Assembly (NCBI GenBank): GCA_016783155.1
Contig: JADHXB010000001.1
Coordinates: 1,228 to 65,227, forward strand
Direction of reading: 5' to 3'
Source: Dehalococcoidia bacterium
GTDB lineage: Bacteria; Chloroflexota; Dehalococcoidia; GIF9; UBA5629
Length of the DNA stretch: 64,000 bases
Part shown: positions 6,968-55,274 of the stretch, in pieces
Position numbering within the stretch: the first letter of the stretch is position 1
Layout: the number at the start of each line of letters is the position of its first letter
Translations under genes and position numbers: made by a program
Notes under the pieces: model-generated
The model's input: the letters and a program-made list of their open reading frames with translations, nothing else
Told to the model about the DNA's origin: nothing
Database searches by the model: none

Positions 6968-7240
6968 ATGAGTGTCAGGGTCAAGTTGCCATCTGTCCTG
7001 CAAGAGTTTAGCTGTGGCGCTGAGACATGTGAGGTAACCGGCAAAACGGTTGGTGAATGCATTAAGAGCCTTGAGATGCGATTTCCCGATATCAAAAACC
7101 ACCTGTTCGATAGGCAGGGGAAGCTACTTCGAATATTTGGCATTTATTTAAAGTCCGATGGTATTTATCCTGTGGACATAGATACTCCTGTGCAGGACAA
7201 CGACGAGCTTATCATCTTAAACTTCATTATGGGTGGCTAG
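6968..7240 (+). CDS. MoaD/ThiS-like ubiquitin-fold protein with C-terminal GlyGly
   Basis: 90 aa ending ..NFIMGG. Beta-grasp-like pattern. Lies immediately upstream of the AOR gene, as with the AorD/AorE-type partners of bacterial AOR operons. Confidence 0.6.
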   Translation: MSVRVKLPSVLQEFSCGAETCEVTGKTVGECIKSLEMRFPDIKNHLFDRQGKLLRIFGIYLKSDGIYPVDIDTPVQDNDELIILNFIMGG

Positions 7241-7276
7241 TACTCACCCGGCTAATATTAACTTTGGAGGTGAAAA

Positions 7277-9118
7277 ATGCGTGGTTATACTGGCAAGCTT
7301 TTGCGTATTAATCTAAGTAACCGTAGGAGCCAAGTCGAGGATATACCTGAGCAATTGATGAAGGATTTCCTTGGGGGGCGAGGTCTTGCTGTTAAGTATC
7401 TTTACAGCGAGCTTAAGCCTGGGGTAGACGCATTAGGGCCGGACAACAAATTGTTGTTCATGATGGGGCCCCTTGGTGCTACTACCGCCATGTCTGTTTC
7501 CAGAATAGCTGTAGTAACCAAGAGCCCTATCACTGGATGTATAGCTAAATCTATCGCAGGTGGCAACTTCGGTGCCTTCCTTAAGTTCGCTGGTTTCGAC
7601 GGGGTAATATTAGAAGGTAAGGCTGAGAAGCCAACTTATATCCATATTGATGGCGATGGGGTTCATATGCTGGATGCGGATGAAATTTGGGGGCTGGATA
7701 CTGAAGAAACTCAAATGAAACTGCGGCAGATGCATGGCAACTCAACGAAGACTATTTGTATCGGGCCAGCTGGGGAGAAGCTGGTTCGCTATGCCATAGT
7801 TATTAGCGAGCTCCGCTGTGGTGGGCGTACTGGCGTGGGTACCGTGATGGGAGCCAAAAACTTAAAGGCTATAGCTGTCAACTCATCCGGACCACTCGGT
7901 GTATATGACTCGCAGCAATTCAAAAGTTTAGCCAGGGAGCAGATCGAAGGCTTAAGGACAAGTCCCCGGCGGATTCAGATGACCGATTTTGGAACATCAT
8001 ACCTGACCTTAGGCTTTGAGAAGATGGGTATATTCCCGGTGAAGAACTTTCAGGAGGGACATCTTGAAGGTGTCGAGAAGATAAGCGATGAAGCATTCGC
8101 TAAGATAAAGGTCGGGAACAATGGTTGCTATGGCTGTATGACAAAGTGCGGTCAAGAACGCAGGGTAACTGAAGGCCCCTATGCCGGCGCCTTTAGCGAA
8201 GGACCTGATTATGAGTCCATCTGGTCTTTGGGTGGCAATTGGGCCAATACTAATTTGGGTTCTATAATAGCGGCAGACTCCCTCTGTGACAAGCTCGGCA
8301 TGGATACTATCAGCGCGGGTAGCGCTGTTGGCTTCGCCTGCGAGCTATTTGAAAGAGGGATAATTACCAAGAAAGATACCGATGGACTTGACCTTACCTG
8401 GGGTAACCATGGCGATATGCTAAAGCTAGTGGAGAAGATTGGCAGACGGGAAGGGTTTGGAGAGTTGCTTGGTGAAGGTACCAAACGAGCCGCCGAACAT
8501 ATTGGCAAGGGTGCTGAAGCCTATGCTATGCATGTCAAGGGCCTTGAGATTCCAGCCTATGAACCGCGCGCTGTTAAGGGCTATGGACTAATGTTTGCTA
8601 CTTCAAACATAGGTGCCAACCATATGTATGGTCGACCTAGGGAAGAACTAGCTGGCAAGGTGGATAGATTTGCTGATGAAGGCAAGGGCAAAGACATTGC
8701 CCGCAACCAAATAGCACAGGCAGTGGAAGACTCGGTTGTTCAGTGCAGCTTTACGCCTGCTACCGGGCTTACTCCCGAGTCACGTGCGAAGCTCCTTGTG
8801 GCAGCTACTGGGTTCAACGAGTTTAGTGACCCGGCCTATTTGGACCTGATAGGGGAAAGAATTCTTTGCCTTGAGCGTTCGTTTAATGTGCGTGATGGGT
8901 TCAGTCGCAAGGATGACACCCTCCCTGCCAGGATGCTAACCGAGCCCTTAAAGAATGCTGGCCCAGCTACGGGACAGGTAGTACGGAAGCTGGATACGCT
9001 TCTGGATGAGTATTATGATGCCCTTGGCTATTCTCCTCAAGGCATACCTACAACGGAGAAGCTGGGGCAAATAGGCTTAGACTGGGTGATAGAGGATATC
9101 AAGGGATTTGTTAAGTGA
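7277..9118 (+). CDS. aor: tungsten/molybdenum aldehyde:ferredoxin oxidoreductase (AOR family) #1
   Basis: 613 aa. N-terminus MRGYTGKLLRINLS typical of AOR_N; Cys-containing cluster region NNGCYGCMTKCG; C-terminal AOR catalytic domains. GGAGGTG RBS. Confidence 0.92.
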   Translation: MRGYTGKLLRINLSNRRSQVEDIPEQLMKDFLGGRGLAVKYLYSELKPGVDALGPDNKLLFMMGPLGATTAMSVSRIAVVTKSPITGCIAKSIAGGNFGAFLKFAGFDGVILEGKAEKPTYIHIDGDGVHMLDADEIWGLDTEETQMKLRQMHGNSTKTICIGPAGEKLVRYAIVISELRCGGRTGVGTVMGAKNLKAIAVNSSGPLGVYDSQQFKSLAREQIEGLRTSPRRIQMTDFGTSYLTLGFEKMGIFPVKNFQEGHLEGVEKISDEAFAKIKVGNNGCYGCMTKCGQERRVTEGPYAGAFSEGPDYESIWSLGGNWANTNLGSIIAADSLCDKLGMDTISAGSAVGFACELFERGIITKKDTDGLDLTWGNHGDMLKLVEKIGRREGFGELLGEGTKRAAEHIGKGAEAYAMHVKGLEIPAYEPRAVKGYGLMFATSNIGANHMYGRPREELAGKVDRFADEGKGKDIARNQIAQAVEDSVVQCSFTPATGLTPESRAKLLVAATGFNEFSDPAYLDLIGERILCLERSFNVRDGFSRKDDTLPARMLTEPLKNAGPATGQVVRKLDTLLDEYYDALGYSPQGIPTTEKLGQIGLDWVIEDIKGFVK

Positions 9119-9155: not shown

Positions 9156-10001
9156 CTACTGCTTCTGGCGTTGCCGGTAAGCTTCAATGTAACGTCTGGC
9201 ATGTCTATCGCGACCCAGGATGAGGTCAGTGGCCACAATGGCTGGTCGCACCTTGGCTGCATCTGTGATGAGGCAGGTGATACCTGCGGCAACAGCCATA
9301 GCTACGAAGGCATTATTGAGCAAGCCGCGGTCAGGCAAGCCAAAAGAGATATTGCTGGCTCCCAGTGTCATGTTCACTCCCAATTCAGCCTTAATCCTCC
9401 GAATGGCTTCTATGACTTCCGGTCCAGAGCTGGTATCGGCTCCTACGGCGAAAGCCAGGCAATCAATGACAATGTTCTCTCGGGCGATACCAGCTGCCTC
9501 AGCACGCTCCACTATCTTATGGGCAATGCTTACCCTACGTCCTGCATCCTTTGGTATACCATCATCGTCTTGTACCAAACCAACGACTGCTGCTCCATAT
9601 TCTTTCACCATAGGTAGAACCCTGGTTAAGGAGTGTTCTTCACCGCTAACAGAGTTGATGAGCGGTTTGCCCTTGTAGATTTTGAGAGCTGCTTCCAAAG
9701 CCGCCGGATTATTACTGTCAAGGCATAGAGGTATATCTACGGTGTCCATCACTGCCTGCACTGCCTGGGGGAGCAGTGTTACCTCGTTCACGCCGAATGT
9801 GCCTACGTTAACATCAAGAATGTCAGCCCCGGCTTGTACTTGAGCCAGGGCTTCACTGCGTACAATATCCAAGTTGCCCGCCTTCAGAGCCTCTTGAAGT
9901 TTTGTTTTCCCGGCAGGATTGATACGCTCGCCGATAAGCACTGTGGGTTGGGCATCACCGATTATTACTTCTTTTGTGGGGCTTGACACTATCGTTTCCA
10001 T
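9156..10001 (-). CDS. pterin-binding methyltransferase (MtrH/AcsE-like; methyl-corrinoid:tetrahydrofolate methyltransferase, MT-II)
   Basis: 281 aa with a pterin-binding TIM-barrel pattern (..VLIGERINPAGK..DILDVNVG..PLCLDSNN..). Last gene of the corrinoid operon; start overlaps the RACo stop. Confidence 0.8.
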   Translation of the reverse strand: METIVSSPTKEVIIGDAQPTVLIGERINPAGKTKLQEALKAGNLDIVRSEALAQVQAGADILDVNVGTFGVNEVTLLPQAVQAVMDTVDIPLCLDSNNPAALEAALKIYKGKPLINSVSGEEHSLTRVLPMVKEYGAAVVGLVQDDDGIPKDAGRRVSIAHKIVERAEAAGIARENIVIDCLAFAVGADTSSGPEVIEAIRRIKAELGVNMTLGASNISFGLPDRGLLNNAFVAMAVAAGITCLITDAAKVRPAIVATDLILGRDRHARRYIEAYRQRQKQ

Positions 10002-11887
10002 CAGTCGATTTCCTCCCTTTTACCGTCTATAATCCTGTATTGTCCCAGGTAACTCGCCTGGATGAAGGTCTGATCAAAGCCAGGAGCACCGGCTAATTCA
10101 ATGTACTTGACTCGGGAGGCAACAACCTGCGCCTCAGCTCGCTTGGTAAGGGAAATCAGTGCCAGTTTGGCTCCCATGCCGGCAGCGTTTCCTGCCTGTT
10201 GGAAACGGTTTAGAGGCAGTGATGGCAACATGCCAATTGTTACCGCACTGGCCACATCGATGTAGGTGCCAAAGGCTCCGGCGATAATCACCTGCTTAAT
10301 TTTGTCTTCAGGGCAGCCGCTCGCTTCTAAAAGTGTCTGGATACCGCTGCGGATGGCAGCCTTGGCCAGTTGCAGTTCTCTGATATCGTGCTGAGTGATA
10401 GTGATGGCTGGCTTCCCTCCTCGTTCTTCTTTACCAACCAATACAAACTCGCGTTGCCCTTTGTAGGTACGAACACGAGGGTGGTTGTCCGTTATTCTGC
10501 CGCCTTCATCGATGACTTTAGTCAGATAAAGCTGGGATAGGGCATCTAGTATACCAGACCCGCAAATGCCGATTGGTGGTGCTCCGTCAATCGTCTGGTA
10601 CTGTATGATATCATCTACAATTCGTAGGCGTTCGATAGCGCCAGTGGCAGCCCGCATACCATACTTGATATGACCGCCTTCGAATGCTGGACCCGAGGCA
10701 CAGGAGGTGGAAGTAATCTTCCCATCATGTATCAGAGAAACCTCGGTATTAGTCCCGATGTCCAGAGCCACTACTGGTATTTTGGCTGGCAGTACTTCAG
10801 TTGCCAGCAACATGGCTACATGGTCGGCACCAACGAAACCGGCGATGTTGGGCAGCAAGTGAACATATGCCCCGGGAGAAATATGCAAGCCCAGGTCGCC
10901 AGCCTTAACGTCCACAGCCCTGCTAACCGCAGGGACAAAGGGAGACAGAGCCAGTTGTTTTACTGGCAAACCGAGGAAAAGGTGGTGCATGGCGGTATTG
11001 CCGACTACTACTGCCTCGACAATCTCCTCTATGCCGGCGTTAGCTTCGGCACACAGGTCAGCGCAAAGTCCGTTGATTGCCTCGACAGCCAGCTTTTGTA
11101 ACAGCATGCCATCATCCGGCGAGTGTACGACACCAGTAATACGGCTGATGATGTCCTCTCCGTGGCTGATTTGGGGGTTCATGACCCCTTTGGCTGCTAA
11201 AGTCAGGCCATCGCTCAGATTAATCAGATAGCCGGCAATCTTGGTTGTGCCCAGGTCTATGGCTAACCCCAGTTGGTGGCTTGACTGGGGAAGAAGAGCT
11301 ATTACTTCGTCATTGCGGACTACAGCCTGGAACTCCCAGTTCCAAGAACGTATTTGTGTGGAAAGGACACGCAGGACATTAATGTCAATTTTGCCGCAGT
11401 TTAATTGGTGTTGCTGGTTTAGCACCTGGAGCAAACGGTCGGCATCAGCGTCTGGTGCCGACAACGATGGAGCTTCCATCTGAATGCGGTAGGCTCGAAC
11501 AGGCGGCTCCGGATGAACTTTTACCTCTAATCCCTCTACCTGGATTCGCTGGGTGGTGGTCATCGACTCGGGTGGCACAGTCAATTTGCAGTCACTAAGA
11601 GGATAAGTCTGACAGGCTAGACGCCAGCCCTCCTTCAGTTCTTGGGATGTAAATGCCTCCCGCTCGTTAGGCGTTGGTTTTGAGACAGTGCCACTTAGAA
11701 CTTGAACCTTGCATGAGTGGCATGTTCCCTTGCCTCCGCATACGCTACTGATACCCACGCCGAGCCGGCGAGCACAAGCCAGAAGGGACTCGTTGTTTTG
11801 ACATTCCCCTCTTCGACCTACCGGCTCAAAATCAATTGTACAAGCGGTCATTCTCTTTCTGCCTTGGCTTTTATCTTGTTGCTCCAC
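10001..11887 (-). CDS. reductive activator of corrinoid proteins (RACo; [2Fe-2S] ferredoxin + ASKHA ATPase)
   Basis: 628 aa. N-terminal plant-type ferredoxin Cys cluster (CGGKGTCHSCKV), then a long ATPase domain typical of corrinoid activation proteins. Translationally coupled to its neighbours. Confidence 0.85.
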   Translation of the reverse strand: MEQQDKSQGRKRMTACTIDFEPVGRRGECQNNESLLACARRLGVGISSVCGGKGTCHSCKVQVLSGTVSKPTPNEREAFTSQELKEGWRLACQTYPLSDCKLTVPPESMTTTQRIQVEGLEVKVHPEPPVRAYRIQMEAPSLSAPDADADRLLQVLNQQHQLNCGKIDINVLRVLSTQIRSWNWEFQAVVRNDEVIALLPQSSHQLGLAIDLGTTKIAGYLINLSDGLTLAAKGVMNPQISHGEDIISRITGVVHSPDDGMLLQKLAVEAINGLCADLCAEANAGIEEIVEAVVVGNTAMHHLFLGLPVKQLALSPFVPAVSRAVDVKAGDLGLHISPGAYVHLLPNIAGFVGADHVAMLLATEVLPAKIPVVALDIGTNTEVSLIHDGKITSTSCASGPAFEGGHIKYGMRAATGAIERLRIVDDIIQYQTIDGAPPIGICGSGILDALSQLYLTKVIDEGGRITDNHPRVRTYKGQREFVLVGKEERGGKPAITITQHDIRELQLAKAAIRSGIQTLLEASGCPEDKIKQVIIAGAFGTYIDVASAVTIGMLPSLPLNRFQQAGNAAGMGAKLALISLTKRAEAQVVASRVKYIELAGAPGFDQTFIQASYLGQYRIIDGKREEID

Positions 11888-12577
11888 TTATGCCTGGATT
11901 CTATAAGGACAGGTTTTCCTGAGACTGCAGCGGGTACAGACTTCAGCTCGTGTCCACGTTGCCATTTGTGGTCCTATGCCGATGACCATGGAAACTGATT
12001 TGCGGGGAACCATTATTCCTGAGGCGGTCAGGCTCACGCCGATTTCTTGTGTGTTGACCAGTTCAAATAAATTCCACTGCTCGGTAAGGGGCAAGCCAGG
12101 CCAACCCGGGCTAACAGGACTGCTTGTTTGATGCCCGTGCGATGTGGCCCGGCTGGCGATGAGTCTGCAGGCTTCTGGAGCCAGCATGTCCACGGCGGCG
12201 CTCCCGATGCCGTCCAGAATCATCCCGCGCAGAGTCTCGCCGCTTTTGCTGTAGTCTGTTACCTGTTTTTCCAGCTTGGGGCCGATGGTGCAAACGAGTG
12301 CGGCAAGCTCTTTTGCCTCCGGGAAGATTGTGGGTAGTAATGAGCCGTGTATCGCTTTGTCACCCTCCAGCGATACTTGGCCGGAGCTCATCCCGGTTAC
12401 CTGATAGTATTCATAGGCCACCGCTGGCTCCAGGAGATGAGTGTTCTCCACAGTGGCTAGTAGTTCAAGAATTAGATTTTTTATCTCAGGCCTGATTTTA
12501 GAATGTCCCCTGAATCCCTGCCGTCGCAGCACTTCCCCGGTCTTCAAGCTCAGGGGGATATCACGAATTGCAGGCAT
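11888..12577 (-). CDS. methionine synthase (MetH) activation-domain-like protein
   Basis: 229 aa. The segment SPGWPGLPLTEQWNLFELVNTQEIGVSLTASGIMVPRKSVSMVIGIG parallels the MetH reactivation-domain core (..[43 protein letters not shown]..). C-terminal CTRCSLRKTCPY Cys motif. Confidence 0.6.
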   Translation of the reverse strand: MPAIRDIPLSLKTGEVLRRQGFRGHSKIRPEIKNLILELLATVENTHLLEPAVAYEYYQVTGMSSGQVSLEGDKAIHGSLLPTIFPEAKELAALVCTIGPKLEKQVTDYSKSGETLRGMILDGIGSAAVDMLAPEACRLIASRATSHGHQTSSPVSPGWPGLPLTEQWNLFELVNTQEIGVSLTASGIMVPRKSVSMVIGIGPQMATWTRAEVCTRCSLRKTCPYRIQA

Positions 12578-12679
12578 GTATTTCTCTTTCGGGGCCTTGC
12601 CAGTGGCGATAGCATGCCATCAGCATGGCCCCGATACACAGCCTCTCCTCCACCATTATAACCTCAGCCCGTCGAGTAT

Positions 12680-14017
12680 CTATTTGTATACGCCGTATTC
12701 CTTGACGGTGTCAACTATCACCTTGAGATTCTCAAACTTGACCTCATCGAAGAACGCACCATTGGCCATGATATAACCGCCGCCTTTGCCGCAAGTATCG
12801 ATGAGTTTCTTGGCGTAAGCTTTCGAGTCCTCGGGTGTGCCTACGGTCAACAAATCCATGGGCATGTTGCCGCCGACGCAGGCAATGCCATCCAGTGCTT
12901 TCTTGGCTTTAGCCATATCTGTCTGGTCGAACAACCATGCAGTCTTACCTTTAGGTAAGTCCCGGATAACCTCCAGGCGCGAGTTATAGCCTCCCTCAGC
13001 CCAAATAAATGGTACCACTCCCTCATCAACTAAGCCCATGATGACCTTTCTAAGGGTAGGCCAGTAGAATTTCTTGAACTGCTCATCGGAGAGGAAACCA
13101 TCAGCGCCCTTGTGCAGGGGCATGAAAATCAGGGGGCATCCGTTCTGTTTTGCTGCGCCTACTCCCAGCTGAATAAACATTGGCGTTAGTGCTTCCATGG
13201 CCTGGATGAGCTTATCCGGCTGCCGGTACATATCCAGCATTATACCTCTAGTTCCCCTGAGGGTATCGCCAATCACGTCAAAAGGAGCTTTGGTAGCGCC
13301 AGCCTGGTAGGCGGGAAATCCTAATGCGGGCATCTCGTGGAGGAAAGCACCGACAGCCCCTATCCATTTCAGGGCTTCATCGCCGGCTTCAAGAAGAGCC
13401 TTATAGGCGGCTTTAACGGGAGGTAGACCATAGGGAATAAAAGGAAGGCTAACTCCATACATTTCGGTTAGTCCGGCGAGAGGAGGCAGTGTCTGGAGGG
13501 GCTCCAGCGCTCCGAATACGCGCGACGGCCAGATGTAGTATAAGAAGTACAACGCGTTATGAATCAAGATATCATATTCATCCGCCTTCATGTATTCGCC
13601 TTCAATACACTGGTAAGTGGTTTCAGGCGGAACCCCATGGCCGGGCCACTGGTATAATTTGAAGTCAAGAATCTCAACGAATTTCCCCGGGCTAGGCACA
13701 AAGGGGCCACCGTGCGCATCCGGCTGAAAGTCCGTGTAGAATTTTTTCCATGCCGGTGCGATTTTGTCATAGTTATACATGACATCGTGAGGGGTTAATC
13801 CGGAATAATAAGCGGGGGCAAAGCTAGGAATTAGAAAGACCGGCACCCTGTCAGGCAATTTCTTCAGTTGAATAGCATCTTTTATCCTGGTTGCTCTCTC
13901 CTTGTATAACTTCTCGGCTTCGGGGCTGGCAAACTCTACGCCCTGTGGTGAAAGCCACCCTTGAAACAGGGCTTCCTGCTTTTCATCTGATGTCATATCT
14001 TCCCATTTCTTTTCCAT
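12680..14017 (-). CDS. uroporphyrinogen-decarboxylase-family corrinoid methyltransferase (MT-I, substrate:corrinoid methyltransferase)
   Basis: 445 aa with a URO-D/MtaA-like TIM-barrel pattern (PDRVPVF..., PFDVIGD, IWAEGG). Sits between the corrinoid protein and activation genes. Confidence 0.7.
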   Translation of the reverse strand: MEKKWEDMTSDEKQEALFQGWLSPQGVEFASPEAEKLYKERATRIKDAIQLKKLPDRVPVFLIPSFAPAYYSGLTPHDVMYNYDKIAPAWKKFYTDFQPDAHGGPFVPSPGKFVEILDFKLYQWPGHGVPPETTYQCIEGEYMKADEYDILIHNALYFLYYIWPSRVFGALEPLQTLPPLAGLTEMYGVSLPFIPYGLPPVKAAYKALLEAGDEALKWIGAVGAFLHEMPALGFPAYQAGATKAPFDVIGDTLRGTRGIMLDMYRQPDKLIQAMEALTPMFIQLGVGAAKQNGCPLIFMPLHKGADGFLSDEQFKKFYWPTLRKVIMGLVDEGVVPFIWAEGGYNSRLEVIRDLPKGKTAWLFDQTDMAKAKKALDGIACVGGNMPMDLLTVGTPEDSKAYAKKLIDTCGKGGGYIMANGAFFDEVKFENLKVIVDTVKEYGVYK

Positions 14018-14053
14018 ATTTTATTTCCTCCTGTATATCTTTGCTAAGGATTC

Positions 14054-14686
14054 TTATCCAGCGCCGGCCCATTTCTTGGCCAGGGATACCCCTGCCATAG
14101 CATCCAGGCCGTAAGCATCAGCGCCGGTATATTTCCTTATCTCCTCGCTGATTTGGCCACCGCCAATCATGACCTTCACATTGTCTCTCAAGCCGGCAGC
14201 TTGTATGGCCTCTATAGTCTGTTTCATTGAATCGAAAGCCAACGCCAAAAAGCCGCTTAAGCCAACAATAGGGGCACCGCTCTCTTTTATCTTTTCCACG
14301 AACTTCTGCGCCGGGACATCCACGCCCAGGTCGTATACCTCGAAACCGTTAACATCGAGCATAAAGACGACGATATCCTTGCCGATATCATGTATATCCC
14401 CGGCAACAGTGCCAAAAACAACCTTGCCCACACGCTTAATCTCCGCTTCCTTGCTCATCCTCGGCTTAACCATGTCGGTTACTGCTTTCAGTATCTCACC
14501 GGAGTATACCAGGTCGGGCATGAAATACTCGCTGCTGGCAAAGCGCTTGCCCACGAGTTCCATAGCTTTCCTGGCATCTTCCAGAATTTTGAGTGGCTCT
14601 TCACCAGCACTCAGCCTGCCTTCAACGATCTTAAGAGCTTCTTGTTCCTTCAAATCAGCTAATGTGCTAACTAGGTCTTTAGCCAT
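14054..14686 (-). CDS. cobalamin-binding corrinoid protein (B12-binding_2 cap + Rossmann B12 domain)
   Basis: 210 aa. DxHxxG motif present (GDIHDIGKDIV) and GGG...cobalamin-binding region. First gene of the operon, with an AT-rich promoter region upstream (14687-15036). Confidence 0.9.
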   Translation of the reverse strand: MAKDLVSTLADLKEQEALKIVEGRLSAGEEPLKILEDARKAMELVGKRFASSEYFMPDLVYSGEILKAVTDMVKPRMSKEAEIKRVGKVVFGTVAGDIHDIGKDIVVFMLDVNGFEVYDLGVDVPAQKFVEKIKESGAPIVGLSGFLALAFDSMKQTIEAIQAAGLRDNVKVMIGGGQISEEIRKYTGADAYGLDAMAGVSLAKKWAGAG

Positions 14687-40714: not shown

Positions 40715-40717
40715 CTT

Positions 40718-47127: not shown

Positions 47128-48108
47128 ATGAATATGCAGAAAATAGGTAGTGAAAAGCTTAAGGAAATTTTTATCAAAATGTTAAGGATCCGTGCCTTTG
47201 AAGAAAGGGCAATTGCGGAATATCGCAAAGGCATCTTACCTGGCTTTATACATTCTTCAATTGGACAAGAGGCAATCCCGTCTTCTGTCTGCGCATTCCT
47301 GAGGGATGATGACTACATCTTGACTACGCATAGAGGCCACGGCGATATCATCGCTAAGGGAGCCAAATTCGATAAGATGATGGCAGAGCTTTATGCCAAG
47401 GAGACAGGGTATAACAAAGGTAGAGGAGGCTCTATGCATATCGTGGCAGCAGACCTCAACATGCTTGGAGCCACCGCAATTGTTGGTGCCGGTGTTCCTA
47501 TAGCCAGCGGCGTTGCACTGGGTTGCAAGATGCAAAACCTCGATAGAGTAACTGTATGCTTCACGGGCGATGCTGCAACTTGTACCGGTGCCTTCCACGA
47601 GGGCGTTGGTCTGGCAGCAATATGGAACCTGCCAGTAATCTTTGTCGTCGAGAACAACCAGTACGGAATGAGCACTCCGGTAAAATATTATTGTAAGCTT
47701 GAGCAACTGTCTGATAGAGCCAAAGCCTACGGGATTCCCGGGGTAACTGTTGACGGAAATGATGCTGAGGCTATTGCCAATGTTGCCAGTGAGGCAATAG
47801 ATAGAGCCAGAAAAGACGGAGGCCCTACCCTTATTGATGCTATCACTTATAGATATTATGGACACCATATGGGCGACCCCGGTACTAGCTATAGGACTAA
47901 AGAGGAAATTGAGGAGTGGAAACGACACGATCCTATCGAAAGATTTCAAGGTCGCCTTTTAAAGGCAAAGGTAATCACTAAATCGGAAATTCAGGAGATC
48001 CAGGCTAGCATAAATAGAGAGCTTGATGAGGCAGTCAAGTTCGCCATGGAGAGCCCGGAACCTAGGATAGAAGATGCCCTTAATAACATCTACTGTCCAT
48101 CAGCATAA
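47128..48108 (+). CDS. 2-oxoacid dehydrogenase E1 alpha subunit (TPP-dependent; pyruvate/acetoin/branched-chain type)
   Basis: 326 aa. TPP-binding GDG...N motif region (GDAATCTGAFHEG...NNQYGMS). Confidence 0.88.
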   Translation: MNMQKIGSEKLKEIFIKMLRIRAFEERAIAEYRKGILPGFIHSSIGQEAIPSSVCAFLRDDDYILTTHRGHGDIIAKGAKFDKMMAELYAKETGYNKGRGGSMHIVAADLNMLGATAIVGAGVPIASGVALGCKMQNLDRVTVCFTGDAATCTGAFHEGVGLAAIWNLPVIFVVENNQYGMSTPVKYYCKLEQLSDRAKAYGIPGVTVDGNDAEAIANVASEAIDRARKDGGPTLIDAITYRYYGHHMGDPGTSYRTKEEIEEWKRHDPIERFQGRLLKAKVITKSEIQEIQASINRELDEAVKFAMESPEPRIEDALNNIYCPSA

Positions 48109-48128
48109 AAGTCAAGGGGGGGGTATAG

Positions 48129-49133
48129 ATGCGAGATTTAACCTACAGAGAAGCAGTACGTGAAGCTCTTGGGGAGGAACTGAGACGCGACAAGTCAGTT
48201 TTCCTTTTGGGTGAAGATATTGCGGAATATAGTGGGGCATACAAGGTAACCCAGGGGCTACTAGAGGAATTCGGTCGAGAGAGGATAAGGAACACAAACT
48301 TAGCTGAATCGGCGATAGCGGGTGCTGCACTGGGAGCCGCCCTGGTAGGCACACGACCAGTGGCTGAAATAATGTACATTGACTTCTCTCTCCTCGCCCT
48401 GGACCAAATCTTCAACCAGATAGCCAAGTTCCGCTACATGACCGGTGGTATGGTAAAGGTACCACTGGTGATTCGGACTCAGGGTGGTGGGGGTAAAGCT
48501 GCAGGACTTCACCATTCCCAATCCCTAGAAGCACTCTATACACATATTCCAGGACTTATAGTGGTTATGCCATCCACTCCTTATGATGCTAAAGGACTGC
48601 TGAAATCAAGCATAAGAGACGATAATCCAGTTATATTTATTGAACACAAGGGGCTTTATAATGAATCAGGTCCGGTTCCTGAGGAAGAGTACATGATACC
48701 ATTGGGGAAAGCAGAAGTTAAACGCCAGGGTAAAGATATCACCGCTGTCGCCTATTCCAAAAGCCTTCTTCTAACCTTGAAAGCTGCCGAAACCCTAGAA
48801 AAATATGGCATTTCTTTGGAGGTAATCGACCCACGGACTCTGAAACCATTAGACCAGGACACTATACTGAATTCAGTAGAGAAGACAAGCAGATTAATGA
48901 TAGTTCACGAAGCTTGTAAAACGGGAGGATTTGGTGCAGAAATAGCCGCTATCGTTGCTGAAAAGGGTATTGACTATTTGGATGCACCGATCAAACGAGT
49001 GGCAGCCTTAGACTCACCTATCCCCTTCAATCCTAGGTTGGAAGATTATGTCCTGCCCAACGAGAATGACATCATCAAGGGAGCATTTGAATTGACGGGT
49101 AAAGAAATACCAGCCGAGCTAAAACTTGGCTAA
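48129..49133 (+). CDS. 2-oxoacid dehydrogenase E1 beta subunit (transketolase-like)
   Basis: 334 aa. Transketolase pyrimidine-binding and C-terminal domains. Sits between E1 alpha and E2. Confidence 0.9.
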   Translation: MRDLTYREAVREALGEELRRDKSVFLLGEDIAEYSGAYKVTQGLLEEFGRERIRNTNLAESAIAGAALGAALVGTRPVAEIMYIDFSLLALDQIFNQIAKFRYMTGGMVKVPLVIRTQGGGGKAAGLHHSQSLEALYTHIPGLIVVMPSTPYDAKGLLKSSIRDDNPVIFIEHKGLYNESGPVPEEEYMIPLGKAEVKRQGKDITAVAYSKSLLLTLKAAETLEKYGISLEVIDPRTLKPLDQDTILNSVEKTSRLMIVHEACKTGGFGAEIAAIVAEKGIDYLDAPIKRVAALDSPIPFNPRLEDYVLPNENDIIKGAFELTGKEIPAELKLG

Positions 49134-49189
49134 ACTAATGCATTAATCTCAAAGGCAAGAACTGATAGAAAACTAGTGGAGATGGAGAG

Positions 49190-50434
49190 ATGGCTACTGC
49201 AATAATACTACCAAAACTCGATGAGGCAATGCGCACGGGGAAAATCGTGAAGTGGCTGAAAAAGGAGGGGGATCTGGTCAAAAAGGGTGAGGGTGTTGTC
49301 CAAATAGAAACTGAGAAGGTAACTTTCGAGATTGAAGCAGAGGGATCAGGCATCTTAGGCAAGATAATGGCCAAAGAGGGAGAAGAGCTGCCTGTAGGAA
49401 CAATCATCGCCTATATTATTCAGCCAGGAGAAAAAGTGCCTGAGGCGCCGGTGTTGGTAGCCACAGCTAGGGAAGCAGCAAGAACTCAAAAGCCTGTAAC
49501 TGTGCCAAAGGAAGAAGCGCGAGCTAAAGTGTTTGAGGCACCGACAGAAGGCCGAGCCATAAAGGCTTCTCCACTGGCAAAGAGAATAGCCAGGGAACAT
49601 AACATCGATATAACCTCTATCAGAGGAACAGGTCCAAGTGGTAGAATAGTCAGGGAAGATGTCCTGCGGGTTATGGAGGAAAGCAAGATAGCAGTGGCTC
49701 GACCTACCCGGGAAGAGGTGGAATTGGCTGATGAGCAAGTTGCATCGCTGTCATCCATGCGCAAGGTTATCGCCAGGCGTATGACGGAGAGCTTCCAATC
49801 ACCGCATTTCTATCTCACGGTAGAAGTTGAAACCCAGGAATTGATGAAGACCAATAAACAGTTGGTGCCGCTTATAGAGAACAAAATCGGAATACGTTCG
49901 ACCATCACTGATTTGCTTATTAAGATGGTAGCGAAAGCATTGGAGGATAACCCCTCCATGAATTGTGCCTACTTTGATGGGTCTGTCAAGTTCTTCAGAC
50001 GAATAGATATAGGATTGGTTACCTCTGTTGAAGGAGGGCTTGTTGTCCCTGTTATTCGCCAGGCTAATAGGAAATCATTAACCGAGATTGCCCGAGCCAG
50101 GGCTGAGCTAGTTCAGAAAGCCAGAGAAGGCAAACTCAGCATGGCAGAAATGAAGGGCAGTACTTTCACTCTTTCCAATCTGGGGATGTATGGGATAGAC
50201 CAGTTCAGTGCTATCCTCCAACCCCCCGAGGCAGCCATTTTGGCTGTTGGTCGCATTGCGGACAAGGCAGTGGTAAGAGAGGGGCAAATAGTAATCCGAC
50301 CCATGATGACAATGACCTTGTCTATTGACCACCGTGTTCTGGATGGCACTATCGGAGCACAATTTCTAAAGAGCCTGAAAGATTACATCGAAAACCCTGC
50401 ACTTATGTTTTATAGCGTCTTAGTTAGTCCCTAA
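49190..50434 (+). CDS. dihydrolipoamide acyltransferase E2 (lipoyl domain + E3-binding + catalytic domain)
   Basis: 414 aa. N-terminal lipoyl-lysine context (VQIETEKVTFEIEA) and C-terminal DHRxxDG catalytic motif (SIDHRVLDG). Confidence 0.88.
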   Translation: MATAIILPKLDEAMRTGKIVKWLKKEGDLVKKGEGVVQIETEKVTFEIEAEGSGILGKIMAKEGEELPVGTIIAYIIQPGEKVPEAPVLVATAREAARTQKPVTVPKEEARAKVFEAPTEGRAIKASPLAKRIAREHNIDITSIRGTGPSGRIVREDVLRVMEESKIAVARPTREEVELADEQVASLSSMRKVIARRMTESFQSPHFYLTVEVETQELMKTNKQLVPLIENKIGIRSTITDLLIKMVAKALEDNPSMNCAYFDGSVKFFRRIDIGLVTSVEGGLVVPVIRQANRKSLTEIARARAELVQKAREGKLSMAEMKGSTFTLSNLGMYGIDQFSAILQPPEAAILAVGRIADKAVVREGQIVIRPMMTMTLSIDHRVLDGTIGAQFLKSLKDYIENPALMFYSVLVSP

Positions 50435-50452
50435 ACTTAAGAGGTAAAAATA

Positions 50453-51832
50453 ATGGCCAATAGCATCACAATAGTTGGTGGTGGACCCGGTGGCTATGTA
50501 GCCGCCATCAGAGCAGCCCAACTGGGCACACAAGTTACCTTAATTGAGAAGGACGCTCTCGGGGGAACTTGTCTCAACCGCGGTTGCATCCCCACCAAAG
50601 CATTACTGCAATCAGCTGACCTTCTCGAGAAAATCAAGCATTCCGAAACCTTTGGTATCTCAGCGGAGAAGATATCTCTGGATTTCTCAGCGGTAATCAA
50701 GCGGAAGGAAGCTGTAGTAAAGCGGTTGGTAGATGGCGTTGCCTATCTGATGAGAAAGAACAAGATTAAGGTCATTAAAGGCACCGGTGCTCTGATTGAT
50801 TCCAAGACAGTGGGAATTTTAGGAGGAAACGATAGAATAAGTTCTGACAGCATCATTATTGCCACGGGCTCGAAGCCCTCTACAGTTCCCATTAAGGGCA
50901 TCGATGAGCCCGGTGTCATAAGCAGTGATGAAGCTTTGGCCATGGGCCAGCTTCCCAAAAGCATGGCCATCATCGGTGGAGGGGTGATTGGGTTGGAATT
51001 CGCCCAGATCATACACAAGATGGGAGGCAAGGTAACTATTATAGAGATGATGCCTCAAATACTGCCCGCCGAGGATGCAGAAATTGCCCGCATGCTCGAG
51101 GATATATTGAAGAAAGAAGGTATTGAAGTCTTCACTGATGCCATGGTCACCAACATCGGGAGCGACAAACAAGGTAAGAAAGTTTCTTTCACCACCAAAG
51201 ATGGTAGTAAACAAGAAATAGCAACAGATAAGGTACTGATCGCTGTAGGAAGACAACCCTGTACCGATGACCTTGGAGTAAATAAACTGGGTCTTGCCAT
51301 GGATAAAAGTAGGCTAGTTGTCAATGAATACCTGAGGACTAATGTTCCGAATGTCTATGCCATCGGTGACGTAACAGGAGGGCTCATGCTGGCTCATAAG
51401 GCCATGGAAGAGGGTAAATGTGCAGTGGAGAATGCACTAGGTGCTGAGAGCAAGATGGATTATCGCACTGTCCCCCGGTGTGTTTATACTTCCCCTGAAG
51501 TAGCAGGGGTTGGGCTAACTGAAACTTTAGCCAGAGAGGAGTATGGGAATATTAAGGTCGGGCGATTCCCCTTTACCGCTAGCGGTAGGGCAGTAATACA
51601 AAATGAGACAGCGGGTATAGTGAAAATTATTGCCGATGCCAAATATGGGGAAATTCTGGGCATACACATAATCGGCCCTCAAGCCACTGAGTTAATCGCT
51701 GAGGCTGTTCTCGGAATGAAATTGGAAGCCACTTTTGAAGACATTGCCTCTACCATTCATGCGCACCCCACCCTATCGGAAGCAGTGATGGAAGCTGCTC
51801 TAAATGTTGAAGGAAAAACCATCCATTCCTAA
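50453..51832 (+). CDS. lpdA: dihydrolipoamide dehydrogenase E3
   Basis: 459 aa. GGGPGGY FAD motif, redox-active disulfide GGTCLNRGCIPTK, and C-terminal HAHPTLSE interface motif. Confidence 0.9.
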   Translation: MANSITIVGGGPGGYVAAIRAAQLGTQVTLIEKDALGGTCLNRGCIPTKALLQSADLLEKIKHSETFGISAEKISLDFSAVIKRKEAVVKRLVDGVAYLMRKNKIKVIKGTGALIDSKTVGILGGNDRISSDSIIIATGSKPSTVPIKGIDEPGVISSDEALAMGQLPKSMAIIGGGVIGLEFAQIIHKMGGKVTIIEMMPQILPAEDAEIARMLEDILKKEGIEVFTDAMVTNIGSDKQGKKVSFTTKDGSKQEIATDKVLIAVGRQPCTDDLGVNKLGLAMDKSRLVVNEYLRTNVPNVYAIGDVTGGLMLAHKAMEEGKCAVENALGAESKMDYRTVPRCVYTSPEVAGVGLTETLAREEYGNIKVGRFPFTASGRAVIQNETAGIVKIIADAKYGEILGIHIIGPQATELIAEAVLGMKLEATFEDIASTIHAHPTLSEAVMEAALNVEGKTIHS

Positions 51833-52538
51833 TCCACAGAGAGGATTCACCTCTAAGACAAGCCTGTGTCAGGTATATGATCTCGGCACAGTTGATTATG
51901 AGAAAGCCCTGCAACTGCAAAATAAGCTGGTGTCAGCCCGCATTGCCGCTGAAATTCCAGATACAATCCTGTTTCTTCAGCACCCTTCAGTACTGACGAT
52001 TGGAGTGTCTGGAAATGAGGAAGGCGTCATTGCCTCGAGAGATCTGCTGGCTCAAGAAAGAATAGCTATCTTCCATATCGACCGCGGAGGAGGCATTACC
52101 TACCATGGCCCAGGGCAGTTAGTAGGATATCCGATTATCGATCTCAGGACAAAAGGAATAGGGCCAACGCAATATGTGCGTCACCTGGAGGAGGTAATCA
52201 TACGAGCCTTGGCTACCTTCTCTATTACTGCCAATCGCGACCCTGAATATCCTGGTGTCTGGGTAGGACAGGACGAGATTTGCGCCCTGGGAATTCGGGT
52301 GATTCACTGGGTCACCATGCACGGATTCGCTCTGAATGTGAACACCGACCTGAAGTACTTCACCTACATTACTCCTTGCGGTATTACCGATAGGCAGGCA
52401 ACCTCGATGTCGCGGTTGCTGGCACACGACATTGCTTTAGAGAATGTAGTTCCGTGTATAATTGAGCAGTGGGCACAGGTTTTTAATATGAAGATTAGGC
52501 AAGAATCTGCCGAGGAGCTATTACGCTATGTCCAGTAA
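51804..52538 (+). CDS. lipB: lipoyl(octanoyl) transferase
   Basis: 244 aa. HIDRGGGITYHGPGQLVGYPI matches the LipB active-site region. Overlaps the E3 3' end, so the true start may be later. Confidence 0.8.
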   Translation: MLKEKPSIPNPQRGFTSKTSLCQVYDLGTVDYEKALQLQNKLVSARIAAEIPDTILFLQHPSVLTIGVSGNEEGVIASRDLLAQERIAIFHIDRGGGITYHGPGQLVGYPIIDLRTKGIGPTQYVRHLEEVIIRALATFSITANRDPEYPGVWVGQDEICALGIRVIHWVTMHGFALNVNTDLKYFTYITPCGITDRQATSMSRLLAHDIALENVVPCIIEQWAQVFNMKIRQESAEELLRYVQ

Positions 52539-53388
52539 ACATCCAGGGTGGATGATAAAGAAGACTCCATCCACATCCATCATTGCTGAGATGAGCGTGC
52601 TAATCGATGGGCTATCGCTTCATACCGTCTGTCAGAGTGCTCTATGCCCCAACCTGGGGGAGTGTTTTTCGCATCAAACTGCTACCTTCCTGATCATGGG
52701 AAATATTTGCACTCGTAATTGCAGTTTTTGTGCTATCAACAAAGGAAAAGGTTTTGCCCTTGATCCAGATGAGCCCTGGAACGTCGCCCGGGCCGTCAGT
52801 AAACTGAAGTTGCACCATGTCGTCGTTACTTCAGTAACCAGGGACGACCTTCCCGATGGAGGAGCCACACACTTCACCAGAACGATAAACGCCATCAGGC
52901 AAACCAGTCCCCAGGCTACCATCGAGGTTCTCATTCCTGATTTTAAGGGCTCCCTCGAGGCGCTCAAAACTGTTGTGGATAGCTCCCCAGAAGTTGTCAA
53001 TCATAATGTGGAAACTGTGCCACGCCTATACTCCGAGGTACGCCCCAAAGCTGATTACCATCGCTCCTTGAATCTATTACGGACAGTGAAATCCCTGAAC
53101 AGAAACATATTAACCAAATCTGGGCTGATGGTGGGGTTGGGAGAGGAACATGACGAGATAGTAAATGTAATGGAAGAGCTCCGCACAGTACAGTGTGATT
53201 TCCTGACTATCGGACAATACCTGGCACCATCACCGAAGCACTACCCAGTGGCAAGGTATGTTACTCCCCAGGAGTTCGAAGAGTATAAGAGCTTAGGGGA
53301 GAGGATGGGCTTTAGCTATGTAGCGTCAGGCCCCTTCGTGCGTAGTTCTTTCAGGGCAGCGGAAATGGTGGCATCTAAGCCGCATTAA
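52528..53388 (+). CDS. lipA: lipoyl synthase (radical SAM)
   Basis: 286 aa. CPNLGEC auxiliary cluster motif and CTRNCSFCA radical-SAM CxxxCxxC motif. Confidence 0.9.
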   Translation: MSSKHPGWMIKKTPSTSIIAEMSVLIDGLSLHTVCQSALCPNLGECFSHQTATFLIMGNICTRNCSFCAINKGKGFALDPDEPWNVARAVSKLKLHHVVVTSVTRDDLPDGGATHFTRTINAIRQTSPQATIEVLIPDFKGSLEALKTVVDSSPEVVNHNVETVPRLYSEVRPKADYHRSLNLLRTVKSLNRNILTKSGLMVGLGEEHDEIVNVMEELRTVQCDFLTIGQYLAPSPKHYPVARYVTPQEFEEYKSLGERMGFSYVASGPFVRSSFRAAEMVASKPH

Positions 53389-53510
53389 GGCACACAAGAT
53401 GGATTGCGGATAAGCAAGTAACCTTTATGCAATTTAACTAAATCTACGAATCGAGATATTCGAAGTAGTGAACTCTGCAGCCAGCTAGGTATATAAGAGA
53501 AGGGAAAAAG

Positions 53511-55274
53511 ATGAAAGGGTTTTTTAATAAAGTACTACATGTGGATTTAACTGGTCGAACCTACTGGGTGGAAGAGCTAAAAGACGAGGCATTATCTTCC
53601 TGGCTAGGAGGGCGAGGGTTGGGCTGCTATCTTCTCTGGAAGACCCTGAAAACGGGCATCGATCCCCTATCTCCCGAGAATTCACTCATTTTTGCCACAG
53701 GTCCAGCTGCAGCAACAAAAATGCCAGGATCCAGCCGCTACGGCGTCTATAGTAAATCACCCCTGACCAATTTTTTCGCTGATTCCTATGCCGGAGGTCA
53801 TCTCGCTCCGCAGATGAAAAAAACTGGTTACGATGCTATTATCGTTCATGGGGCCTCCTCGTCGCCAGTGTTCCTGGAAATCTCATCCGATGGAGCTAGA
53901 TTTTGGGATGCTTCTGACCTATGGGGAAATAGCACCTACGAGACAGAGGAGCAATGTCTGAGCAAAGTTAACATCCCTGGAGCCCAGGCTTTGGTAATCG
54001 GCCCTGCTGGTGAGAATCTGGTAAGATTTGCTTGTATTGTGAACAATCGCTGGCGTAATGCCGGCCGAACAGGGATGGGAGCAATCATGGGCTCCAAGAA
54101 GCTCAAGGCCATGGTCTTTCACGGAGAAAAGGAATGTGAAATAGCCGATCCAGGATTGCTGGATAGTCTGGTACATGACCTTACAGAGCGAGGAAAAAAC
54201 GACCCTACAGTTCGAAGGTACCGGGAATTGGGGACACCAATGCTGGTGGCAACAACTAATCTGGCTGGCGCTTTTCCTGCTGAGTATTGGTCGAAGGGAA
54301 CACTTCCGGGATGGGAAAAGATTTCTGCAGAAACTATGCAAAGAGATTTCGAGGTAAAAGCAAGGGCTTGTACACGTTGCTTTCTTGCTTGCGGGAAACT
54401 AACCACAGTAACCCAGGGAAGACACAGGGGGCTGACTCTTGAAGGGCCAGAGTACGAGACCATTTATAGTTTCGGAGGCTTATGCAAGATCCTGGATCTG
54501 GCAGAAATCATATACCTGAATGACATCTGTGATAGGCTCGGAATAGATACCATAACTGCCGGTAATATAGTGGCTTTCTGCATGGAGTTATCCAAGAGAG
54601 GAAAACTTTCTGAAAAGGTTGATTATGGTAATCCCGACCATGCTGCGGAGTTGCTACACAAAATTTGCCAGAGGGAAGGATTGGGTGATACGCTGGCAGA
54701 AGGGATAAATAAAGCGAGTCAAGTTCTGGGTGCCGAAGACCTGGCTATCCATGTTAAAGGATTAGAGCCGGCTGGATATGACCCCCGCGTGCTTAAAGGT
54801 ATGGCACTCGGTTATGGTATATCACCACGCGGAGCCTGTCACCTGCCAGCAACATATTATATCTTTGAACTACGCGGGGTAGTAAATCCATCAGAAATAC
54901 AAGGAAAAGCAGAGTCGTACATTGGTTATGAAGACAGGCTTACAATTATGGATACCATGATTCTCTGTCGGTTCTTTAGGGACATGATCGGTTGGCCAGA
55001 GTTAATTAAGCTTATCAAAGCTACGACTGGTTTGGAATTCGATGAGTCAGGGCTAAGAGAGCTAGCTAATAATATAACTACCCTGAGGCATTTAATAAAC
55101 ATCCGGGAAGGATGGAACAAAGAAAATGATATGCTGCCAGCACGCTTATTAGATGAGCCCATCAATGGGCATCGGGTTACCAAAGACGAGCTTAACTACA
55201 TGGTGAATGAATACTATCAACTAAGGGGTTGGGATGAGGATGGTAAACCACTTAAAGAGCTTAGCATTGAGTAA
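53511..55274 (+). CDS. aldehyde:ferredoxin oxidoreductase family protein #4 (shorter, divergent paralog)
   Basis: 587 aa. MKGFFNKVLHVDLTGRTYWVEE N-terminus and AOR-like domain order, but clearly more divergent than AOR #1-3. Confidence 0.82.
   Translation: MKGFFNKVLHVDLTGRTYWVEELKDEALSSWLGGRGLGCYLLWKTLKTGIDPLSPENSLIFATGPAAATKMPGSSRYGVYSKSPLTNFFADSYAGGHLAPQMKKTGYDAIIVHGASSSPVFLEISSDGARFWDASDLWGNSTYETEEQCLSKVNIPGAQALVIGPAGENLVRFACIVNNRWRNAGRTGMGAIMGSKKLKAMVFHGEKECEIADPGLLDSLVHDLTERGKNDPTVRRYRELGTPMLVATTNLAGAFPAEYWSKGTLPGWEKISAETMQRDFEVKARACTRCFLACGKLTTVTQGRHRGLTLEGPEYETIYSFGGLCKILDLAEIIYLNDICDRLGIDTITAGNIVAFCMELSKRGKLSEKVDYGNPDHAAELLHKICQREGLGDTLAEGINKASQVLGAEDLAIHVKGLEPAGYDPRVLKGMALGYGISPRGACHLPATYYIFELRGVVNPSEIQGKAESYIGYEDRLTIMDTMILCRFFRDMIGWPELIKLIKATTGLEFDESGLRELANNITTLRHLINIREGWNKENDMLPARLLDEPINGHRVTKDELNYMVNEYYQLRGWDEDGKPLKELSIE

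Follow-up and report, generated by a model that had tools for sequence, protein, structure and literature searches.

Iyer, Burroughs and Aravind reported in 2006 that genes for MoaD proteins are "strictly adjacent" to genes for tungsten-type aldehyde oxidoreductase (AOR) in scattered archaea and bacteria, and proposed that they form a mobile cluster for synthesis of the molybdopterin of the tungsten cofactor (PMC1779556), and the survey by Makarova and Koonin in 2010 confirmed the MoaD-AOR cluster for archaea (PMC2948915). In Aromatoleum aromaticum, aorD and aorE encode MoaD-like proteins that the purified enzyme does not contain and that were described in 2019 as putative maturation factors (PMC6365974). 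In T. kodakarensis the MoaD-family protein TK1065 is encoded beside AOR, and synthesis of the tungsten cofactor depends in part on Ubl proteins (PMC11323500). Several AOR genes in one genome are also known: P. carbinolicus carries four aor paralogs with 72-79% identity, together with an acetoin dehydrogenase cluster consisting of acoABCSL and lipB (PMC3543383). In this study, we analyzed a stretch of 64,000 nucleotides from a Dehalococcoidia bacterium (assembly GCA_016783155.1, contig JADHXB010000001.1, positions 1,228 to 65,227 of the forward strand; hereafter the window), which is a dense catabolic island with four AOR-family genes, all on the plus strand, as found by open reading frame (ORF) listing and Pfam scans.

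We consider it likely that this island carries four anciently diverged AOR paralogs of the tungsten type, each set in a conserved mini-module of its own and each oxidising the aldehyde of that module. The sequences themselves show the domains, the catalytic residues, the clades and the kept gene order, whereas the substrates, the reaction direction, the presence of tungsten, the use of ferredoxin and the function of the carriers are inferences. The arrangement is ordinary and for the most part already described, with a few new details, among them that the small partner protein of AOR1 is, by sequence comparison, of the CysO type and not of the MoaD type. A first-pass annotation, made from the letters of the window alone, had treated the role of AorD/AorE-type MoaD-like proteins as unresolved, but the link between MoaD and AOR had already been published in 2006, 2010 and 2019, as cited above. 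For comparison of gene order, we used 80 AOR loci taken from genomes that represent species, 23 metagenome loci with AOR4-like genes, and seven contexts of AOR1 and AOR3 orthologs, and scored the neighbours in the fetched loci with the window's own proteins (note that this sample of loci, cited below by L numbers, is biased toward relatives of the window's own paralogs). A literature search combining Dehalococcoidia, AOR and ligase gave nothing specific.

Domains, catalytic residues and phylogeny of the four AOR paralogs

The four AOR genes are located as follows.

7277-9118, plus strand: AOR1, 613 aa, AFOR_N and AFOR_C domains (Pfam)
24594-26450, plus strand: AOR2, 618 aa, AFOR domains (Pfam)
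33788-35626, plus strand: AOR3, 612 aa, AFOR domains (Pfam)
53511-55274, plus strand: AOR4, 587 aa, AFOR domains (Pfam)

The coordinates and spacings given in the first-pass annotation for these genes and for the two carriers with a GlyGly (GG) end described below were all correct. In all four proteins the AFOR_N and AFOR_C matches cover the whole Pfam profiles, with E-values from 1e-74 to 1e-142. The identity among the paralogs is only 36-46%, and they are therefore taken as old duplicates. The greatest divergence is that of AOR4 (36-38% identity to the others), which is also shorter by about 25 residues, in agreement with its initial description as short and divergent. The four cysteines of the [4Fe-4S] cluster (Cys288, 291, 295 and 494 of P. 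furiosus AOR) are invariant in the four paralogs and in all the homologs compared. Among the second-shell residues listed for aldehyde-oxidising enzymes, Thr243, Tyr312, Glu313 and His448 (PMC12096430), three (Thr243, Glu313 and His448) are shared by the four proteins, and Tyr312 is present in every paralog except AOR2.

In a search against all sequences in the Protein Data Bank (PDB), the top match of each paralog was an AOR sensu stricto. P. furiosus AOR (1aor), the best match of AOR1, was matched with 436, 543, 480 and 372 bits by AOR1, AOR2, AOR3 and AOR4, respectively (the best match of AOR4 was 9mqx with 373 bits). In the same order, the scores were 316, 374, 294 and 319 bits against FOR (1b25), 268, 271, 250 and 210 bits against WOR5, and 174, 228, 228 and 178 bits against BamB; A. 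aromaticum AorB (8c0z) scored between 289 and 438 bits across the four. Against the models of NCBIfam for YdhV and for GAPOR of archaea, the matches of all four were far below threshold and limited to the N-terminal part. Within this set of references, all four paralogs are by sequence closest to AOR sensu stricto, ahead of FOR, WOR5, BamB, GAPOR and YdhV.

For a neighbour-joining tree with FOR as the outgroup and 100 bootstraps, 104 sequences were used, namely the window paralogs, the AORs of the comparison loci and five references from the PDB. AOR2 forms a clade of 7 sequences with L007-L012 (bootstrap 100), which is tight and yet spans bacteria and archaea, AOR1 and AOR3 lie together in a clade with bootstrap 99, and AOR4 belongs to a deep clade of 16 sequences (bootstrap 100). 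After addition of more orthologs, the AOR1 and AOR3 families were each supported at 100 and were sisters at 93 within a larger clade at 96. The four paralogs are distributed over three subclades with bootstrap 96-100 and do not fall into a single clade, as the refuting condition named in the first-pass annotation would have required. None of the structurally characterised enzymes is inside the three paralog subclades, and the deep nodes are at bootstrap 32-43. Since the characterised AORs are broad-spectrum in substrate (PMC12096430), membership in a subclade does not predict the substrate. The nearest homologs of AOR1 and AOR3, with identity up to 92-95%, carry the labels of Chloroflexi or Dehalococcoidia metagenome-assembled genomes (MAGs).

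GG-ending carriers adjacent to AOR1 and AOR3

Two small proteins with a GG end are encoded next to AOR1 and AOR3.

6968-7240, plus strand: GG carrier of the CysO type, ThiS superfamily, 90 aa, ending in MGG; AOR1 starts 36 nt after it
35632-35901, plus strand: archaeal-type MoaD-family carrier, 89 aa, GTG start, ending in FGG; 5 nt after AOR3

Both were called MoaD-like in the first-pass annotation, a name that is correct for the AOR3 carrier and applies to the AOR1 carrier at the superfamily level only. The AOR1 carrier matches Pfam ThiS with 22.6 bits, at the cut-off, and TIGR01687 with 27.8 bits, under the cut-off of 49.5, and finds no canonical MoaD at E<=1 in the PDB search. Its best solved relatives are CysO of M. 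tuberculosis (3dwg_C; E 9e-8 with the single sequence and 1e-11 with the profile, residues 1-90 aligned to 1-93) and the CysO-like 4n6e_B (E 9e-8 and 2e-11, residues 1-90 aligned to 1-90). The AOR3 carrier matches ThiS with 54 bits and TIGR01687 with 55.0 bits, above the cut-off, and its family profile matches Ta0895, 2m19, P. furiosus 1vjk, a SAMP1 homolog and E. coli MoaD. Since the similarity between the two carriers is confined to the last 20-21 residues (pairwise BLAST; hhalign probability 41%), homology between them was not accepted and they are treated as members of different subfamilies.

The GG ends and the positions beside AOR are both conserved, and the loss of either, which the first-pass annotation had named as refuting its proposal, was not observed. 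In the family of the CysO-like carrier, comprising 176 homolog clusters, all of the 120 listed clusters end in GG, and the string of SDRs, PPDK_N, 570-aa PEP-utilizers protein, 90-aa ThiS protein and AOR1 is kept in L110 (76% identity) and L111 (71%), where the ThiS proteins directly upstream of the AOR1 orthologs are 66% identical to the window carrier and end in MGG. For at least 13 members of the CysO-like family, the longest contig is of the length given for that of an AOR1 ortholog. A more distant relative of AOR1 (66% identity, L112) is in a different gene context. In the case of AOR3, a GG-ending ThiS protein of 89-95 aa is encoded directly downstream in all four orthologous loci, L113 (75% identity), L114 (71%, a Thermovenabulum MAG), L115 (69%, a deltaproteobacterial MAG) and L116 (84%), with the GG end conserved in 4/4, so that with the window counted the carrier follows AOR3 in 5/5 loci. 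These loci come from Chloroflexota, from one genus of Bacillota and from the deltaproteobacterial MAG, and their surroundings are otherwise unrelated.

These proteins are presumably sulfur carriers, each supplying thiocarboxylate sulfur for the metallopterin cofactor of its cognate AOR. Within the scanned ORFs of the window and the contexts L110-L116, we found no gene for MoaE, ThiF/MoeB or MoeA, and no tungstate transporter (tupABC) in the window or beside the carrier genes in L110-L116; the proposed role in cofactor synthesis therefore rests on gene context and literature. The same lack of MoaE or an E1 enzyme near the carriers in the window would suit a different role, in which the GG proteins would be ubiquitin-like protein modifiers of the SAMP type, or would serve a sulfur metabolite that has nothing to do with the cofactor, and would stand beside AOR for regulatory or incidental reasons. 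Both carriers do match SAMP1, with scores of 27-37 bits against a cut-off of 60, the T. kodakarensis Ubl proteins including TK1065 are conjugated to proteins (PMC11323500), and CysO, which the AOR1 carrier resembles, serves elsewhere in cysteine and thiosugar synthesis. On the other hand, the carriers strictly adjoin AOR over a wide phylogenetic range, at spacings of 5-36 nt, no gene for a JAMM protease (Mec+), E1 enzyme or CysM stands alongside in the window, L110 or L111, and the published reading of such pairs is synthesis of the tungsten cofactor (PMC1779556, PMC2948915, PMC6365974). We regard such an alternative role as improbable and retain the assignment as sulfur carriers for the cofactor.

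Same-strand GG-ending carriers within 400 nt were detected for 27 of the 94 sampled AOR genes with intact flanks. The AOR-adjacent carriers in the fetched loci are almost all of the MoaD type, the CysO type being found only with the AOR1 lineage. Since AOR1 and AOR3 belong to sister families and the outgroup next to them also has downstream carriers of the MoaD type, the simplest reading of these sequences is that the AOR1 lineage exchanged its carrier, a CysO-type protein taking the place of the archaeal MoaD type that the sister AOR3 clade kept. The swap between sister AOR clades provides a natural experiment on the function of AOR-linked carriers. It might be a case of non-orthologous displacement, in which any donor of thiocarboxylate sulfur, and not specifically a molybdopterin-synthase subunit docking to MoaE, would suffice for AOR; we put this forward with little confidence. 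The carrier might then install or repair the terminal sulfido ligand on tungsten, or might re-sulfurate the cofactor, and, if so, AorD/AorE-type proteins would have a role distinct from bulk molybdopterin synthesis.

The genes preceding the AOR1 carrier are as follows.

1-936, minus strand: ORF running off the window start, part of a split set of phosphotransferase genes resembling phosphoenolpyruvate (PEP) synthase
930-1970, minus strand: PPDK_N protein, 346 aa (Pfam)
2561-5020, plus strand: three SDRs (Pfam)
5116-6831, plus strand: PEP-utilizers protein, 571 aa (Pfam)

The AOR1 module would accordingly consist of the PEP-utilising phosphotransferase and SDRs, the CysO-type carrier and AOR1. 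The products of the split phosphotransferase genes within 1-6831, a 346-aa PPDK_N protein and PEP-utilizers/Rph_4th proteins with a length near 570 aa, are similar to subunits of phenylphosphate synthase. In L112, the segment 8001-16787 carries two tandem AORs followed by Fer4_11, a CCG-domain Fe-S protein, a 1026-aa HdrA-like flavoprotein and FlpD (MvhD-like), a set in which AOR could be coupled to an electron-bifurcating module of the heterodisulfide-reductase type.

On the upstream side of AOR3, two genes were identified.

32208-33542, plus strand: PaaK-family adenylating ligase with AMP-binding_C_2, TIGR02155 236.5 bits
33547-33726, plus strand: ORF of 59 aa, called in the source contig, no family above threshold

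The equivalog cut-off of TIGR02155 (646.3) is not reached, and the PaaK-like gene is only a member of the PaaK/F390-synthetase family. The 59-aa ORF, separated by 4 nt from the PaaK-like gene and by 61 nt from AOR3, resembles a coiled coil. The first-pass annotation was right in placing a PaaK-like ligase before AOR3 and a MoaD-like gene after it, but the pairing with PaaK is not conserved: no PaaK gene was found beside the AOR3 orthologs in L113-L116 (69-84% identity). A conserved phenylacetaldehyde module of PaaK and AOR3 was for this reason rejected, and the position of AOR3 behind the ligase is local to the window's lineage. AOR3 and its archaeal-type MoaD would form a mobile two-gene cassette that has here landed behind a PaaK-family ligase.

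AOR2 module and pairing of AOR with acyl-CoA ligases

AOR2 lies within the following group of genes.

20095-21699, minus strand: benzoate-CoA ligase family protein, TIGR02262 619.8 bits against a cut-off of 375
within 21995-24546, plus strand: two SCP2-domain proteins, upstream of AOR2 (Pfam)
23051-24217, plus strand: Fe-dependent alcohol dehydrogenase (Pfam)
24283-24546, plus strand: SCO4226-like (DUF4242) protein, 87 aa, 47 nt upstream of AOR2 (Pfam)
26461-28149, plus strand: FadD-like AMP-forming acyl-CoA ligase with AMP-binding and AMP-binding_C, starting 10 nt after AOR2
28174-29286, plus strand: FrhB/FdhB-family flavoprotein with N-terminal 2x[4Fe-4S] (Pfam, NCBIfam)
29560-32109, plus strand: SCPx-type thiolase, DUF35/zf-ChsH2 protein and SDR, for beta-oxidation-like steps (Pfam, NCBIfam)

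The FadD-like ligase, which matches fatty-acid-CoA ligase models only below threshold, is firmly linked to AOR2. An orthologous ligase (616-711 bits) directly follows the AOR2 ortholog in L007, L008, L009, L010 and L012, and a frameshifted copy follows it in L054, making 6/6 of the orthologous loci with downstream sequence. This pair is present in genomes with the labels Desulfatiglandaceae, Bacillota, Syntrophomonadaceae, Desulfomonilaceae, "uncultured delta proteobacterium" and "uncultured archaeon". Genes for SCP2 accompany the AOR2 orthologs in L007-L010, L013 and L054, and the Fe-dependent alcohol dehydrogenase does so in L008; the SCO4226-like gene was not found beside AOR2 orthologs. 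From the conservation of the carriers and of the AOR2 ligase in orthologous loci, as read from the sequences, these adjacencies are not due to chance.

The AOR2 module, consisting of SCP2 and the Fe-dependent alcohol dehydrogenase, AOR2, the FadD-like ligase and the thiolase/DUF35/SDR set, would convert an alcohol via the aldehyde and the acid to an acyl-CoA, with beta-oxidation-like thiolytic shortening of a hydrophobic substrate as the end step. For AOR2, the funnelling from aldehyde to acid to acyl-CoA proposed in the first-pass annotation is sound, the ligase being conserved in all six loci. A flow in the reverse direction, in which the AORs would use reduced ferredoxin to convert acids into aldehydes and the Fe-dependent alcohol dehydrogenase would make alcohols as an electron sink, was also considered; such a dehydrogenase is indeed present upstream of AOR2, and acid reduction by AOR-family enzymes at a low rate is on record. 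However, the reported reverse rates of archaeal and Moorella enzymes are less than 0.3% of the forward rates (PMC6365974), the ligase and thiolase/SDR genes downstream of AOR2 would make sense only with the acid as the product, and AOR4 stands behind an oxidative dehydrogenase complex. The reverse direction is in our view very improbable, and the conserved FadD-like ligase favours the oxidative direction for AOR2; most likely, each AOR oxidises the aldehyde intermediate of its own module to the acid.

The first-pass annotation went further and had each AOR wired to a different acyl-CoA ligase, several aldehydes being funnelled via their acids to acyl-CoAs. The strongly conserved pair of AOR2 and its FadD-like ligase agrees with this proposal, as do the PaaK-family ligase preceding AOR3 in the window, the AMP-binding ligase directly downstream of the AOR1 ortholog in L111, and the ligases that precede AOR4-like genes of about 50% identity by 2-9 nt in L092, L094, L096, L097, L098 and L107, with L103 carrying a BCL-like ORF upstream of a frameshifted AOR4-like gene. 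In the window, however, only AOR2 and AOR3 adjoin a ligase, and the Pfam scans gave none adjacent to AOR1 or AOR4; the third ligase of the region (20095-21699) adjoins no AOR, being 2.9 kb from AOR2 on the opposite strand, and the PaaK gene is missing from the four loci orthologous to AOR3. In the sample as a whole, an adjacent same-strand ligase was found for 11 of the 94 AOR genes with intact flanks, or 12 of all 106. A ligase for every AOR is therefore doubtful.

As to electron transfer, the first-pass annotation correctly stated that no ferredoxin or FAD subunit of the AorABC type is adjacent: genes for AorA polyferredoxin (Fer4) or AorC (Pyr_redox_2) are present beside none of the four AORs, while the same pipeline detected in L098, serving as a positive control, a 160-aa Fer4 protein, AOR and a 422-aa Pyr_redox_2 protein. 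The small ORFs at 15037, 39587 and 33547 match no family above threshold and none is a ferredoxin; that at 44018 is a cupin and not a ferredoxin. The FrhB-like flavo-Fe-S gene does follow the ligase that starts 10 nt after AOR2, as first described, but it is absent beside every AOR2 ortholog examined, its place after the ligase being held in L008, L009 and L010 by a MoaD-type GG ORF. Nothing therefore marks the FrhB-like protein as an electron partner of AOR2, and this candidate was dropped. Given the absence of AorA/AorC subunits nearby and the behaviour of the closest characterised enzymes, the electrons from the AORs probably pass to free ferredoxin.

AOR4 module and the neighbouring Mo-enzyme operon

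The genes on both sides of AOR4 are as follows.

47128-53388, plus strand: E1alpha, E1beta, E2, E3, LipB and LipA of a 2-oxoacid/acetoin-type dehydrogenase (Pfam, NCBIfam)
55294-59771, minus strand: FmdE, Fer4_11 small subunit and AhtL-like molybdopterin large subunit (Pfam)

The dehydrogenase genes are directly upstream of AOR4 and co-directional with it, AOR4 being the last gene of the string. The order E2-E3-LipB-LipA-AOR4 is repeated in L090 and LipA-AOR4 in L087, and E1-E3 genes are nearby in L106; in L045 (Syntrophaceae), E1alpha-E1beta-E2-E3 are followed by an AOR of another clade. The genes for E1alpha, E1beta, E2 and E3 are encoded together with those for lipoyl synthase and octanoyltransferase, matching the content of the P. 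carbinolicus acoABCSL plus lipB cluster. In this module, acetoin-type cleavage by E1-E3 would release an aldehyde that AOR4 oxidises, which would explain the presence of AOR as the last gene of the operon.

The first-pass annotation had AOR4 next to FmdE and the Mo-enzyme operon. The position is correct, but the implied link is not, AOR4 going with the E1-LipA string. FmdE starts 19 nt past the AOR4 stop on the opposite strand in convergent orientation, and belongs to the neighbouring Mo-enzyme operon, separate from AOR4. In L104 (95% identity), the convergent FmdE and AhtS/AhtL genes are repeated beside AOR4.

The window contains two pairs of genes similar to pyrogallol-phloroglucinol transhydroxylase, at 39884-43312 and at 55294-59771 (minus strand), each with an AhtL-like large subunit and a Fer4_11/CarboxypepD_reg small subunit. 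FmdE accompanies only one of them; in L104, the same FmdE occurs together with two or more additional pairs of this kind. In L045, the segment 410-11842 carries an ortholog of the window's M24 peptidase-family gene (686 bits), a divergent AOR of 671 aa, E1alpha-E1beta-E2-E3 and the second AOR, and this gene order suggests that the M24 gene of the window (45523-46752) is functionally tied to the E1-E3/AOR module. In the gap that separates the M24 gene from E1alpha, two divergent sigma-70-like promoter matches are located at 46971-47068, that on the minus strand (46999-46971) being a perfect 12/12 consensus and that on the plus strand (47040-47068) being 10/12 with an extended -10 TG.

Setting of the island and points against the proposed modules

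The island also encodes GlcD/GlcF-like flavo-Fe-S proteins and an Amidohydro_2 protein. A complete corrinoid methyltransferase system is present at 9156-14686 on the minus strand, convergent with AOR1, including a pterin-binding methyltransferase, a RACo reductive activator, a B12-binding protein and a URO-D-like methyltransferase. The system resembles an O-demethylase, and similar genes are present near the AOR loci L110 and L113.

Several observations weigh against the interpretation as four conserved aldehyde-oxidising modules. AOR2 carries Phe at the conserved second-shell position Tyr312 (codon at 25527-25529), where all six AOR2 orthologs have Tyr. This is not a sequencing error, since the same protein sequence is present on 13 independent contigs (AOR2 was found unchanged on contigs of GCA_014382305.1 and of several metagenome assemblies), and Phe at this position occurs naturally in other clades (L056, L075 and L099). 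The missing MoaE, ThiF/MoeB, MoeA and tupABC genes described above count on the same side. With respect to AOR4, its close orthologs L088 and L089 are without the E1-E3 context, and the acetoin-type assignment of the dehydrogenase is tentative, since E1 is equally similar (tblastn against annotated plasmids, about 47% identity) to pdhA-annotated genes and to aco-like genes with a sigma-54 regulator; PDH E1alpha models of NCBIfam fall just under the cut-off (360 against 394), and the E1beta subfamily model scores above its own cut-off. At the level of regulation, the Rfam scan of the whole window at gathering thresholds gave no matches, the Moco riboswitch included, and the idea of a Moco/Wco riboswitch upstream of the AORs was dropped. 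The consensus scans for promoters and terminators gave counts not above those of shuffled controls, the divergent pair preceding E1alpha being the one feature of note, and the operon limits are therefore inferred from spacing and strand.

The main use of these results is in annotation: several AOR lineages of old origin are present in uncultured Dehalococcoidia, each going with a catabolic module of its own, and two misreadings are corrected, that every AOR has its own ligase and that AOR4 is to be grouped with FmdE and the Mo enzyme. The module SCP2-AOR-FadD-(MoaD), found across domains, points to a dedicated route from hydrophobic alcohol or aldehyde to acyl-CoA, and AOR as the final gene of an acetoin-dehydrogenase-like operon may be of interest to specialists.

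Comparison with known systems

Compared with AOR sensu stricto (1aor, 9g7j and 9mqx), the window paralogs are alike in the build from two Pfam domains, the length of about 600 aa, the cysteines and second-shell residues, and the lack of extra redox subunits encoded beside the gene. They differ in lying outside the subclade of the structurally characterised enzymes, AOR2 differs further in Phe312, and AOR4 in being about 25 residues shorter. AorABCDE of A. aromaticum (AorB, 8c0z) likewise has an AOR catalytic subunit encoded with genes of the MoaD superfamily, but the window lacks AorA and AorC, has one carrier per AOR instead of two, and has a carrier of the CysO type in the case of AOR1.

The pair of AOR3 and its carrier is exactly a cassette of the kind described in PMC1779556, with an archaeal-type MoaD, a GG end and an occurrence in distant phyla, whereas MoeB, MoaE, MoaA and a pyridine-disulfide oxidoreductase, often present in the published cluster, are absent in the window, and the AOR1-linked carrier represents a different branch of the superfamily. 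The latter aligns end to end, the GG included, with M. tuberculosis CysO (3dwg_C) and the BexX-bound carrier (4n6e_B), but has no CysM, Mec/JAMM or MoeZ neighbour and sits upstream of an AOR instead.

The likeness of the AOR4 module to P. carbinolicus is in the presence of E1alpha-E3 genes with lipoyl synthase and octanoyltransferase in an anaerobe with several AORs, where the cleavage of acetoin yields acetaldehyde, a substrate of AOR. The window differs in that no Moco riboswitch was found in it, in the lower identity among its AORs (36-46% against 72-79%), and in the position of AOR as the terminal gene of the same string.

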